A stretch of DNA of 64,000 nucleotides from Candidatus Dormiibacterota bacterium (GTDB taxonomy: Bacteria; Chloroflexota; Dormibacteria; Aeolococcales; Aeolococcaceae), in contig CAWCVK010000001.1 of assembly GCA_963799005.1 (NCBI GenBank), forward strand, positions 867,691 to 931,690, given 5' to 3'. Below the pieces are notes generated by a model. The model saw nothing but the letters and a program-made list of their open reading frames with translations. It ran no database searches and was not told where the DNA came from. This document shows positions 1,051 to 4,332 of the stretch, one piece after another. Position numbers and translations under genes: made by a program. Position 1 is the stretch's first letter. Every line of letters begins with the position of its first letter.

Positions 1051-1560
1051 ATGGCCAAGAAGACTCGAAAGCAGAAACAGCGCGCGGCGACGCGGCGTCC
1101 GGGAACACAGGCCGCCGCAACACCCGGGGCCGCCACAGTACCCCGGACCCCCGCAGCACCCCAGGCCGCCACCGCGCGCGAGGCGCCGGAGGCAGCGCCC
1201 GTCACCGTGCGTCCCGTGACGGGGCAGGTGCTGCCGGAGACCGTCCTCCCGCTGCCGAGCACGCAGCTGCAGATCGAGTCGGAGACGGCCGACGATACCG
1301 AGGAAGGGCTCGCCGCAACCACGGACGGCTATTCGCGCCGGCGCGTCCAGCGTGTCAACCCGGCCGCCCAGCCGCGCGCGATCCGCGGTCAGGTGAGCGC
1401 CGCCGCACTATTCCAGCCGCTGGACAGCGAGGAGGCGGCCATCCCGTTCGACCGCGTCCCCTACGTGCCTCGCGATCTTCGCCGGGTTGCGATCATGGCA
1501 TCGCTCATGGTGGTGCTCATTCTCATCGCGGCGTTCGTGGTGACGCGCATCAATCTGTGA
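1051..1560 (+). CDS. hypothetical tail-anchored membrane protein
   Basis: Basic/Pro-Ala-rich N-terminus; single hydrophobic helix (VAIMASLMVVLILIAAFVV) ending 5 aa from the C-terminus, after YVPRDLRR. Start at ATG 1051 chosen over 994. Confidence 0.75.
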   Translation: MAKKTRKQKQRAATRRPGTQAAATPGAATVPRTPAAPQAATAREAPEAAPVTVRPVTGQVLPETVLPLPSTQLQIESETADDTEEGLAATTDGYSRRRVQRVNPAAQPRAIRGQVSAAALFQPLDSEEAAIPFDRVPYVPRDLRRVAIMASLMVVLILIAAFVVTRINL

Positions 1561-1576
1561 GCCTCGAGACACGCGC

Positions 1577-2749
1577 GTGCGAGTGATTCTCTATACAGGG
1601 AAGGGCGGGGTTGGCAAGACGACCGTTGCGGCCGCGACCGCGGTCAGGTGCGCGAGCCTCGGCTACAAGACGCTGGTCATCAGCACCGACGCGGCCCACA
1701 GCCTGGGGGACAGCGTCGATCAGGAGATCGGCGATCAGCCGACCGAGCTGGCTCCGAATCTCTGGGGCCAGGAGGTCAACGCGCTCCACGAACTCGAGGA
1801 GCACTGGGACCGAATCCACATCTATCTGACATCGCTGTTCGCGTCGCAGGGCGTCGACGACATCGTGGCCGAGGAGATGGCATCGCCTCCGGGGATGGAG
1901 GAGGTCGCGAGTCTCATGTGGATCAAGAAGCACAAGCGCGAGGGCAAGTTCGACGTCCTCATCGTGGATTGCGCACCGACGGGCGAGACCCTGCAGCTGC
2001 TCGCGTTCCCGGATGTCGCCAAGTGGTACCTCGACCGCATCTTCCCGATTCACCGGATGATGAACAAGGTGGCGCGCCCGGTGATGCAGCCATTCATCAG
2101 CATTCCCCTGCCGAGCGACGAGATCTTCAGCAATGTCAAGGACCTGCTTCTCGACCTCGAGGGTATGAAGAAGATCCTCGGCGATCCCAAGGTGTGCACC
2201 ACCCGGATCGTGCTCAACCTCGAAAAGATGGTTGTCAAGGAGGCGCAGCGAGCGTTCACGTATCTGAGCCTCTACGACTACCTCACCGACCTCGTGGTGG
2301 TGAACCGCGTCCTGCCCCCCGAGGTCACGGACAGCTACTTCGACTCGTGGCGCGAGGCGCAGCAGCGCTACGCGCTGATGGTGGAGACCGCCTTCTCACC
2401 GATCCCGACGCTGCAGACCAAGCTGTTCGACCACGAGATCGTCGGACTCGACCACCTCGCCGAGATGGGGGAGTCGATCTACGGCGACCGCGATCCTTCG
2501 CAGATCTTCTACCACGCCGTGCCCCAGCGCATCCGCAAGGTTGGCAACAACTACGAGCTGCAGCTTCATCTCCCGTTCGTCGGCAAGGAGGACGTCGACA
2601 TCAAGCATCGCGAGGGCGAGCTCTTCGTCAGTGTCGGTCCGTACAAGCGCGAGATATCACTGCCGCGGGTGCTCAACGGCAAACGCGTGACCAAGGGGCG
2701 GCTCGACGAAGGCATGCTCCTGGTGACGTTCTCGGATCGCAAGCCATGA
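1577..2749 (+). CDS. ArsA/Get3-family ATPase with C-terminal HSP20/alpha-crystallin-like domain
   Basis: GKGGVGKTT P-loop, STDAAHSL switch I, DCAPTG switch II, C-terminal 'ELFVSVGPYKREISLP'. Confidence 0.92.
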   Translation: MRVILYTGKGGVGKTTVAAATAVRCASLGYKTLVISTDAAHSLGDSVDQEIGDQPTELAPNLWGQEVNALHELEEHWDRIHIYLTSLFASQGVDDIVAEEMASPPGMEEVASLMWIKKHKREGKFDVLIVDCAPTGETLQLLAFPDVAKWYLDRIFPIHRMMNKVARPVMQPFISIPLPSDEIFSNVKDLLLDLEGMKKILGDPKVCTTRIVLNLEKMVVKEAQRAFTYLSLYDYLTDLVVVNRVLPPEVTDSYFDSWREAQQRYALMVETAFSPIPTLQTKLFDHEIVGLDHLAEMGESIYGDRDPSQIFYHAVPQRIRKVGNNYELQLHLPFVGKEDVDIKHREGELFVSVGPYKREISLPRVLNGKRVTKGRLDEGMLLVTFSDRKP

Positions 2750-3009
2750 CCGAATCGTGTCGCATCTGCCCCACGCGTCTCATCGATGAGGCGTCGCGCC
2801 TGCTCGGCACGTCCTTTGGCGAACTCGTGCCACCCGAGGCGCAGCGGCACCTGCTGATCGCCCAGCGCGAGCTTCTGCTCGCAGTTGCGGCGGTGATCGA
2901 ATACCACACACGTCAGCCGGAACCCGCCGCGTCGCGGTCGCGCGGCCGCAAGCGATCCGCAGGCGGAACGGAGCGCTCGCGGCGGCCGTCGCGGGTCGAG
3001 CTCGAGTAG
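2746..3009 (+). CDS. small hypothetical protein coupled to the ArsA gene (CxxCP; DUF5304-like)
   Basis: ATGA overlap with the ATPase stop; MTESCRICP...HLLIAQRELLLAVAAVIE. Confidence 0.75.
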   Translation: MTESCRICPTRLIDEASRLLGTSFGELVPPEAQRHLLIAQRELLLAVAAVIEYHTRQPEPAASRSRGRKRSAGGTERSRRPSRVELE

Positions 3010-3019
3010 CCGTCGCCGG

Positions 3020-3757
3020 GTGACCAGTCCCGGTACCTACCTGGCGATCGTTCTCTACACCCTGCCGGGTTTCCTGTTCGGATCGGTGATTCACGAGCTC
3101 AGCCACGCGGCCATCGCGCTGCGCTGCGGCGACCCGACCCCGCGCCGCGCCGGCCGCATGACCCTCGACCCACGCCGCAACATCGACCCCCTCGGGTGCC
3201 TGGCGCTGCTCCTGGCCGGGATCGGCTGGGGCCGGCCGGTACCGCTGGATCCGTTGTATCTCCGTGCCGGTCGGCAGCGTGCGGCGGTCGCGGCGGCGGG
3301 GCCGCTCGCCCATCTCGTGGTCGCCGCCGTCTTCGCCGGAGCGCTGCGCGTGGAGTTGCTCGGTTCGGGTATCGACGCGAGCGGCTTCGACACGCTCGCC
3401 CAGCTGACGGCCCAGGGCGTGATCTACGGGGTGCTGCTGCAGGGGTTTCTGGTCAACATGGCGCTCTTCGTCTTCAATGCCCTGCCGCTCCCGGGCCTCG
3501 ACGGCTACGCCGTGCTGCGCAGCCTCCTCTTCGGCACCGCACCGCGTTTGTTCCTGTACGTGGAGCAGTACCGCTACGTGGTCTACGCGCTCGCCGCCGT
3601 GGTGGCGCTGCTGCTCCCGCCGCTGACCCACGGCGCCGTCGACCCGGCTGCCGCGATGACGGTGGGGACCGCGTCGCTCACCTTCGATCATCTGATCGTG
3701 CCCGGCGTGGAGCCGCTGTTCATCGGCCTCCCGAACGCGTTTCACCTGATCTCGTGA
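3020..3757 (+). CDS. site-2 protease (peptidase M50)
   Basis: HELSH zinc motif, NALPLPGLDG motif, multiple TM segments. Confidence 0.92.
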   Translation: MTSPGTYLAIVLYTLPGFLFGSVIHELSHAAIALRCGDPTPRRAGRMTLDPRRNIDPLGCLALLLAGIGWGRPVPLDPLYLRAGRQRAAVAAAGPLAHLVVAAVFAGALRVELLGSGIDASGFDTLAQLTAQGVIYGVLLQGFLVNMALFVFNALPLPGLDGYAVLRSLLFGTAPRLFLYVEQYRYVVYALAAVVALLLPPLTHGAVDPAAAMTVGTASLTFDHLIVPGVEPLFIGLPNAFHLIS

Positions 3758-3845
3758 GCTCCGTGGTGATCGACGCGTGAGCGCCGTGGTGATCGACGCG
3801 TGAGCGCCGTGGTGATCCACGCGTGAGCGCCGTGATGATCGACGG
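3754..3845 (+). repeat. 4 x 23-bp tandem repeat GTGAGCGCCGTGGTGATCGACGC
   Basis: Units begin at 3754, 3777, 3800 and 3823, with 0-2 mismatches each. Confidence 0.95.
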
Positions 3846-4332
3846 CGTGGAGTGGCCCGTCGAGGGCGCGCAGGTGGCGATCGTGCAACGCGGGCGTGTG
3901 CTCCTCCAGTTCCGGCCATGGCCGCCCGGCTGGGAGCTTCCCGGCGGTCACTGCGAGCCTGATGAGGACCCCGCCGTCACCGCCGCGCGCGAGACCGAGG
4001 AGGAGACAGGCTACCGGGTGCGCATCGACGGCATCGTCGGCGTGTACTCGTGGCGGGGACTGCGGTCGGCCGGCGACGTGGTCTTCCTTGCCCAGGTCAT
4101 CGGGGGTGCGCCGCGGCGCAGCCTCGAAGCCTGGTCGATGCGGATGGCGAGCCCTGACATGCTTCCGCGAACGGTGTTCCCATGGATCCGGCAGCGCGTG
4201 CGCGACGCGGTCGACGTGGCCGGCGGTGCTGCCCCGGCGCACCGGGAGCAACCGGTGACGATCCGCCACGTGCTCGGTTTTGCGACCGCGTGGCTGCACA
4301 CCCCGGTCGACCGCGTGTTGCGCCGCCGATGA
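3823..4332 (+). CDS. NUDIX hydrolase
   Basis: Nudix box GGHCEPDEDPAVTAARETEEETGY. Confidence 0.92.
   Translation: MSAVMIDGVEWPVEGAQVAIVQRGRVLLQFRPWPPGWELPGGHCEPDEDPAVTAARETEEETGYRVRIDGIVGVYSWRGLRSAGDVVFLAQVIGGAPRRSLEAWSMRMASPDMLPRTVFPWIRQRVRDAVDVAGGAAPAHREQPVTIRHVLGFATAWLHTPVDRVLRRR

Follow-up and report, generated by a model that had tools for sequence, protein, structure and literature searches.

The stretch of DNA considered here (the window) comprises 64,000 nucleotides of high-GC sequence from Candidatus Dormiibacterota bacterium (NCBI GenBank assembly GCA_963799005.1, contig CAWCVK010000001.1, positions 867,691 to 931,690 of the forward strand), an uncultured soil bacterium of the class Dormibacteria (phylum Chloroflexota) whose genome was assembled from a metagenome. 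Near the start of the window lie four genes, encoding a predicted tail-anchored (TA) protein, a Get3/ArsA-family ATPase with a C-terminal HSP20-like (alpha-crystallin-like) domain, a small protein of 87 amino acids, and an M50 protease. Comparison across the phylum suggests that the locus probably consists of two side-by-side units, an ATPase-partner cassette and a TA/M50 pair. Homologues carry the name Candidatus Dormibacteraeota in the source records, and the genome database ranks the group as a class within a phylum the size of Chloroflexota. The four genes are arranged as follows:

1051 to 1560, forward strand: TA gene (start ATG at 1051, stop TGA at 1558-1560; 169 amino acids)
1577 to 2749, forward strand: Get3/ArsA ATPase with an HSP20-like domain (start GTG at 1577, stop TGA at 2747-2749; 390 amino acids)
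2746 to 3009, forward strand: small partner protein, PF27253 (start ATG at 2746; 87 amino acids)
3020 to 3757, forward strand: M50 protease without a PDZ domain (start GTG at 3020; 245 amino acids)

The TA gene is followed after 16 nucleotides by the ATPase gene, the start codon of the 87-residue open reading frame (ORF) overlaps the ATPase stop codon as ATGA, and a gap of 10 nucleotides separates this ORF from the M50 gene. No terminator-like sites were found on the forward strand between the genes of the locus. These ORFs and spacings had all been proposed in an initial annotation of the window and were borne out, as were the TA topology (a single hydrophobic stretch by hydropathy), the HSP20-like domain of the ATPase, and the M50 assignment that it had put forward. 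Its statement that no arsenic-resistance genes lie nearby likewise holds for the neighbours scanned with Pfam, in which none of arsB, arsC, arsR, and arsD was found. The arrangement is not a product of chance, because the same order, extended by a downstream Nudix gene to five genes, is found again in a further 22 genomes of the genus and in 7 genomes of a second family, whose ATPase is 65% identical to that of the window and whose TA protein is 27-30% identical.

The ATPase matches PF02374 (E-value 1e-90) and PF17886, ArsA_HSP20 (1.5e-18), and its score of 257.8 against TIGR00345 (cut-off 135) places it in the Get3/ArsA/TRC40 family. Both the deviant Walker A motif, GKGGVGKTT, and the STDAAHSL motif harboring the switch I aspartate are invariant in the ATPase alignment. 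Switch II (positions 1967-1990, residues 131-138) reads DCAPTGET, with a glutamate in place of the histidine of the canonical DTAPTGHT, and none of the 53 aligned homologues departs from this glutamate of DxAPTGET. Unlike canonical Get3, the 390-residue protein has no CxxC zinc motif and contains only three isolated cysteines. An AlphaFold2 model computed from 53 sequences (predicted local distance difference test score, pLDDT, of 79.3) shows a crystallin-like beta-sandwich at residues 317-386. Long predicted helices at residues 144-170 and 181-202, candidates for a hydrophobic groove or TRC40-insert that might bind a TA transmembrane helix, include a methionine-rich stretch, HRMMNKVARPVMQPF, but the pLDDT there is only 55-63.

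The nearest PDB sequences are those of archaeal Get3, with 3ZQ6 at 2e-47 versus 1.7e-21 for the Nostoc Get3d. The ATPase core of the model is also nearest to 3ZQ6 and 3UG6 (30% identity, template modelling score of about 0.75), and only the Get3d entries 8EGK, 3IGF, and 8ELF could be aligned from end to end (385-420 columns), with the beta-sandwich at the C-terminus covered as well. The more narrowly defined models do not recognise the protein: it scores 132.6 against the NosAFP equivalog NF050088 (cut-off 325), 47 and 44 against the BagA and BagB models NF053622 and NF053621 (cut-offs 400 and 521), and 84 against the arsenical-pump ArsA model TIGR04291 (cut-off 650), and its ATPase domain is single rather than tandem. 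Judged by its motifs and profile matches, the ATPase belongs to a known kind: it is a catalytically intact Get3-type protein of the group 6/Get3d type, and not an arsenic-pump protein. The initial annotation had called it an ArsA/Get3-family ATPase of a possible GET-like module; its reading as Get3-type is upheld by the agreement with Get3 models and structures and by the failure of the ArsA equivalog.

The 87-residue protein is soluble and is composed of an N-terminal CxxCP motif, an amphipathic helix, PPEAQRHLLIAQRELLLA, with a fairly hydrophobic core (LLLAVAAVIEY), a linker that is basic and disordered, and the C-terminal sequence RVELE. Across the phylum, its relatives follow the pattern P-x-E-x-x-x-H-x-x-x-A-x-[RK]-E-x-L-L-A, a charged and variable linker, and a C-terminal [RK]-[IV]-x-[IV]-[ED]; His34 and Glu41 of the helix (window numbering) are invariant in the family. 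The tail, [IV]-x-[IVL]-[ED], forms the exact C-terminus in 271 of 323 members (84%) and lies no more than 4 residues from the end in 295 of them (91%). The family amounts to 1462 representatives at 50% clustering, all of 50-155 amino acids. A protein database lists PF27253 (precomputed) for the window's partner and for 105 of its 107 listed homologues, and no paper naming PF27253 was found. In local scans, neither this protein nor the TA protein matched a Pfam or NCBIfam entry, the local Pfam release being older than PF27253. No description of this conserved small partner was met in the literature searched.

Several variations on this plan occur within the family. The CxxCP motif (positions 2755-2769, residues 4-8) is found in part of the window's taxonomic family only, as CRICP, CPLCP, CRACP, CTLCP, CGICP, or CDGCP, and is absent from other clades. 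In Limnocylindria and relatives, the partner gains an N-terminal coiled-coil-like helix, ELEARIADLERRL, which would suit dimerisation on a dimeric ATPase. In one Chloroflexota family, relatives of the partner harbor two tandem helix motifs and no C-terminal tail; these adjoin an ABC1/UbiB-like kinase gene, and their genomes contain no ATPase match at E≤1e-30.

The association of the two genes was surveyed in 401 genomes spread over the phylum and in 80 loci fetched each from a different genus, with a partner profile built from the ORFs read immediately after each ATPase gene. Of 110 ATPase loci, 86 have a partner gene as the next gene downstream in the same orientation, including all 23 of the further loci across the class and 32 of the 57 loci from other classes. 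Full-length ATPase homologues, crystallin-like domain included, are present in 231 of the 401 genomes. Both genes occur in 145 genomes, the ATPase alone in 86, the partner alone in 13, and neither in 157, corresponding to an odds ratio of 20 (Fisher p = 7e-32, with no phylogenetic correction). A pattern scan from the partner side over 185,579 species genomes returned 80 loci, nearly all from Chloroflexota (Limnocylindria, Chloroflexia, and Anaerolineae), with the ATPase gene immediately upstream in 74; four of the remaining six end at a contig edge. The pattern samples one subfamily, and missing cyanobacterial matches carry no meaning.

The two genes are also tightly joined. Among 63 complete pairs, the partner begins between -41 and +5 nucleotides from the ATPase stop, and start and stop codons overlap in most. 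Outside the class, no neighbour of the ATPase gene other than the partner is kept. In adjacent pairs, the tail of the partner and the crystallin-like domain of the ATPase always occur together. Both genes are missing together from one family of the class (8 genomes) and from one further genome of the window's family. At the level of gene order and co-occurrence, ATPase and partner are kept together and co-inherited across Chloroflexota as a two-gene cassette, the first of the two units. The initial annotation had cast the 87-residue protein as a partner or adaptor, and the phylum-wide adjacency and co-occurrence with the ATPase fit a dedicated partner.

The only hydrophobic stretch of the 169-residue TA protein spans residues 146-164 (Kyte-Doolittle mean of 3.1) and leaves a 5-residue tail beyond it; this tail-anchored topology is common to all 24 aligned homologues. 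Across the class, the protein retains a basic N-terminus (MAKKTRKQKQR or MARKNKRSQ), a variable Pro/Ala-rich linker (Pro/Ala/Thr-rich in the window), and the juxtamembrane motif IPFDRVPYVPRDLRRV. Conservation of the N-terminal MAKKTRKQKQR among relatives marks ATG 1051 as the correct start. Throughout the class, the TA gene lies upstream of the ATPase gene, either adjacent to it or 500-1050 nucleotides away with intervening genes, one of which, in two of the families, is DUF4446-like.

The distribution of the TA family is much narrower than that of the cassette. With a profile that spans the motif IP-x-DRVPY-xxx-DLRR and the transmembrane helix, both in the conserved C-terminal part, strong matches (1e-16 to 1e-26) in a genome-wide search of the 401 genomes are restricted to the class Dormibacteria, and the weak matches outside the class cover the hydrophobic segment only. 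By plain tblastn of the 80 loci, the TA protein, the M50 protease, and the Nudix hydrolase were found inside the class only. At 56 of the 57 ATPase loci outside the class, there is no upstream ORF on the same strand with a C-terminal hydrophobic helix.

The M50 protein matches PF02163 with a score of 39.5 (cut-off 27.2, E-value 5e-10), contains the HELSH and NALPLPGLDG (NxxPxxxLDG) motifs, has about five hydrophobic segments, and lacks a PDZ domain, in agreement with an M50 site-2 protease. No PDB sequence matched it. The gene is syntenic across Dormibacteria. In the family that lacks both ATPase and partner, the TA gene is present in 7 of the 8 genomes (E-values of 1e-19 to 1e-21), and 6 of these 7 loci read YchF, TA, M50, SelB, with M50 as the next recognisable gene after TA and a gap between them that ranges from an overlap to about 550 nucleotides. 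By gene content and order, TA and M50 form a separate, class-specific pair, the second unit, which stays together where the cassette is absent. Since the pair is intact in the ATPase-less family, the cassette would lie within an older TA/M50 pair in the other families or would have been excised from it in this one.

The remaining surroundings of the locus, as read from a Pfam scan, include an HNH endonuclease, a Nudix hydrolase, a Na/Ca exchanger, and a GNAT acetyltransferase. At 19-702, ahead of the TA gene, lies a gene of the DUF222/HNH endonuclease type. Its place is taken by YchF in most of the class's other families, so local synteny is broken upstream of the window's TA gene. Downstream lies one further gene:

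3823 to 4332, forward strand: Nudix hydrolase (PF00293 at 3e-14)

This gene is kept downstream in the window's family and in the second family of the order, and no functional link is argued for it. Between it and the M50 gene, a 23-bp tandem repeat (3753-3849; 4.2 copies, 93% matches) begins at the M50 stop and reaches the Nudix start. The array duplicates the M50/Nudix junction and codes for VSAVVID-like units; in most relatives of the same genus, the array is missing and the two genes abut or overlap at the M50 stop and the Nudix start.

A similar layout was encountered in two other phyla by tblastn of plasmid-labelled records, with a single example per phylum. In Bacillus thuringiensis, the stop of a full-length ArsA+HSP20 gene is overlapped by a 63-residue DUF3926 gene whose product ends in NIIIE. 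In Nonomuraea, a full-length ArsA+HSP20 gene is followed after 48 nucleotides by a gene for a 145-residue DUF5304 (PF17230) protein. This protein contains CRACPVC, which may be set beside the window's CRICP, as well as an H..A..E helix, and its C-terminus reads HIDLN. When the partner alignment was compared with one DUF5304 protein by hhalign, the H..A..E helix aligned weakly (probability 19%, E-value 0.0012), and the 87-residue protein gave no direct Pfam match to DUF5304. Profile comparison detected no similarity between DUF3926 and the partner family. The Bacillota and Actinomycetota examples show a common layout and tail, not proven homology.

The role of the crystallin-like domain in this layout is suggested by work on Get3d, in which the domain occupies the Get4 site, is dispensable for TA binding, and is non-oligomerising (PMC10248533). 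These properties leave the domain without a known role, and it is on this ground that docking of the partner is proposed. The small protein would be a dedicated subunit or regulator that binds the ATPase dimer. Its [IV]-x-[IVL] tail may dock as a beta-strand on the crystallin-like domain, in the manner of the IxI/V tails found in small heat-shock proteins, and its helix would contact the ATPase or the hydrophobic client groove of the latter and may tune ATP turnover or client capture, much as Get4 does for yeast Get3.

A wider proposal is that the crystallin-like domain of group 6/Get3d proteins is a receptor for C-terminal [IV]-x-[IVL] tails given in trans by small proteins encoded downstream (PF27253 in Chloroflexota, DUF5304 in Actinomycetota, and DUF3926 in Bacillota), which would then be the missing partner or regulator of the family. 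This generalisation is offered tentatively, as a possibility that we regard with some doubt. If true, a tail-receptor role would explain why a non-oligomerising domain that is dispensable for client binding persists.

In the second unit, adjacency suggests that the M50 enzyme could cleave the TA protein. As only 1-5 residues lie beyond the membrane, the latter would be cleavable without a prior site-1 cut, and its basic N-terminal part would be freed. The TA protein may also be one client of the ATPase in Dormibacteria, although not an obligate one.

A number of observations weigh against the division into two units and the partner role assigned within it. The functional links are drawn from gene order and co-occurrence alone, and the co-occurrence statistic ignores phylogeny. 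The pairing is not universal, since 86 of the 231 ATPase-bearing genomes (37%) have no partner match, one whole genus with complete genomes among them, some copies of the partner lie distant from any ATPase gene, and some are tail-less. No consistent neighbour gene emerged for the ATPase-unlinked copies. The crystallin-like domain holds 16 of the top 40 positions that separate ATPases with a partner from those without, against 7.5 expected; this approximately twofold enrichment comes with no clean residue signature and is confounded by phylogeny. In three related loci, the ATPase, a TGA codon, and the partner lie in one frame, and this natural read-through fusion was modelled with the TGA read as glycine. 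MAFFT placed the short partner rows correctly only with at most 12 close ATPase rows, and the resulting model is unreliable (pLDDT 56, predicted template modelling score 0.38). It drew the last residues as beta-bridges, which are not relied on. Finally, five genomes, spread over four genera of the window's family, keep the TA gene but have no M50 gene at the locus. The TA/M50 adjacency may be no more than inherited synteny.

The initial annotation had combined the four genes into one GET-like module in which the TA protein would be a dedicated client, the ATPase its targeting factor, the 87-residue protein an adaptor, and the M50 protein a protease for quality control or signalling. Tight spacing on one strand without a terminator-like site, and a TA gene upstream of, and co-oriented with, the ATPase gene throughout four families of Dormibacteria, are in keeping with such a module, as is the in vitro binding of TA transmembrane helices by Get3d proteins (PMC10248533). 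Against it stand the TA gene kept in seven of the eight genomes without ATPase and partner (next to M50 in six of them), the intervening genes (DUF4446-like among them) and gaps of 500-1050 nucleotides between TA and ATPase in several members of the class, the lack of an upstream TA ORF at all but one of the 57 outside loci, and the five genomes of four genera without M50 at the locus. On balance, a single module is unlikely. The ATPase type and the partner survive from that proposal; the client and protease links are not supported by the comparison, as the TA protein is restricted to the class and is kept without the ATPase. The TA-ATPase adjacency is not conserved beyond Dormibacteria, given that the TA gene is confined to the class and persists without the ATPase and that M50 is sometimes missing, and the reading of a dedicated client with a quality-control protease is weakened accordingly. 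Within Dormibacteria, where the two genes are juxtaposed, a client relationship is possible.

Other explanations concern the small protein and its bond to the ATPase. It might be a pseudo-client or lid, whose helix fills the ATPase groove until a client or stress displaces it, its tail being used otherwise. The tail is the main obstacle to this idea: after the helix, it is the most widely kept feature (84-91% of members), a similar one occurs in the positionally equivalent DUF3926 and DUF5304 proteins, and it always accompanies the crystallin-like domain in adjacent pairs. A pseudo-client is accordingly improbable, even though the conserved core is an amphipathic and fairly hydrophobic helix, some members of the family repeat the helix twice and are tail-less, and the crystallin-like domain is already packed against the dimer in the Nostoc and Arabidopsis Get3d structures (PMC10248533). 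Shared ancestry within one phylum, from which much of the evidence comes, inflates the counts and could suggest that the adjacency is inherited gene order without a functional link. This is very unlikely when the pair is kept outside the class while its flanking genes are not, one family and a single additional genome of the window's family have each lost both genes, start and stop codons overlap in most pairs, and analogous pairs are found in Bacillota and Actinomycetota. An arsenite/antimonite resistance ArsA served by an ArsD-like metallochaperone is hardly credible. The Pfam name ArsA_ATPase, the annotation of homologues by some sources as arsenite-transporting ATPase, and the N-terminal CxxC of the window's small protein point that way. 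On the other side are the single Get3 domain in place of the duplicated ArsA architecture, the TIGR04291 score, the lack of arsB, arsC, arsR, and arsD nearby, the closest structures being those of Get3, and a CxxC motif that is confined to one family of the class. The arrangement in two units appears the better account of the locus.

Homologues of Get3 that bear a crystallin-like domain are known from many phyla of bacteria and also from the chloroplasts of plants. A small, translationally coupled, and co-inherited protein with a docking-type tail is a concrete candidate partner of these Get3d/group 6 ATPases and provides a direct experimental handle on the question of Get3d function, for which simple co-expression and pull-down would do. 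According to Barlow et al., partners of Get3d must exist and are still to be found (PMC10248533), and the partner gene is described in neither that study nor the earlier survey of bacterial Get3 homologues (PMC6593721). The results also caution against taking an upstream TA gene as a client, as this gene is kept in ATPase-less genomes and may belong with the intramembrane protease instead.

Photosynthesis is not known from the host class, which disfavours a "photosynthesis-associated" framing of Get3d. The window's ATPase resembles the group 6 bacterial Get3 homologues, for which Chloroflexi are among the listed phyla (Farkas et al. 2019, PMC6593721), and Get3d, represented by the structures 3IGF and 8EGK from Nostoc and 8ELF from Arabidopsis (Barlow et al. 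2023, PMC10248533). The shared features are a single Get3 domain followed by a C-terminal alpha-crystallin-like domain, the lack of CxxC, and, putatively, a TRC40-insert-like region. In contrast to the Nostoc and Arabidopsis proteins, the window's ATPase has intact catalytic motifs, as in the catalytically intact Get3d subtype reported for green bacteria and Sll0086 (PMC10248533), and it is only 19-20% identical to 8EGK and 8ELF. Archaeal Get3 from M. thermautotrophicus (3ZQ6) and M. jannaschii (3UG6/3UG7) provides the best match to the core, with the Walker A motif, the switch I aspartate, and the A-loop region intact. However, the archaeal proteins lack the crystallin-like domain, and DTAPTGHT is replaced by DxAPTGET in the window's clade.

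The mycobacterial BagA/BagB proteins are likewise bacterial Get3-like ATPases of unsettled function, although without a crystallin-like domain. Elsewhere in the same genome (403908-405772, outside the window), two tandem ArsA-family genes that lack the HSP20-like domain would form a BagA/BagB-like pair, and such pairs occur in nearly all genomes of the genus. For the second unit, the closest parallels are RseP/RseA and SpoIVFB/pro-sigma-K, in which a site-2 protease acts on a substrate tethered to the membrane. The window's M50 protein has intact HExxH and LDG motifs and an adjacent single-pass protein that would be almost wholly cytoplasmic, whereas it has no PDZ or CBS domain and its neighbour has no recognisable anti-sigma or sigma domain.

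Yeast Get4/Get5 and Get1/Get2 are possible functional analogues of the small partner, as partners that regulate ATPase activity and client handover. They share no sequence similarity with the 87-residue protein, which, being soluble, cannot be a membrane receptor or insertase. The closest parallel for its tail is found in the small heat-shock proteins, where a C-terminal IxI/V motif docks in the beta4/beta8 groove of the alpha-crystallin domain. The partner's motif differs in being given in trans, in standing at the extreme C-terminus, and in being followed by an acidic residue. As in those proteins, a short [IV]-x-[IVL] sequence ends a flexible, charged extension, here encoded beside a crystallin-fold domain on which it would dock.

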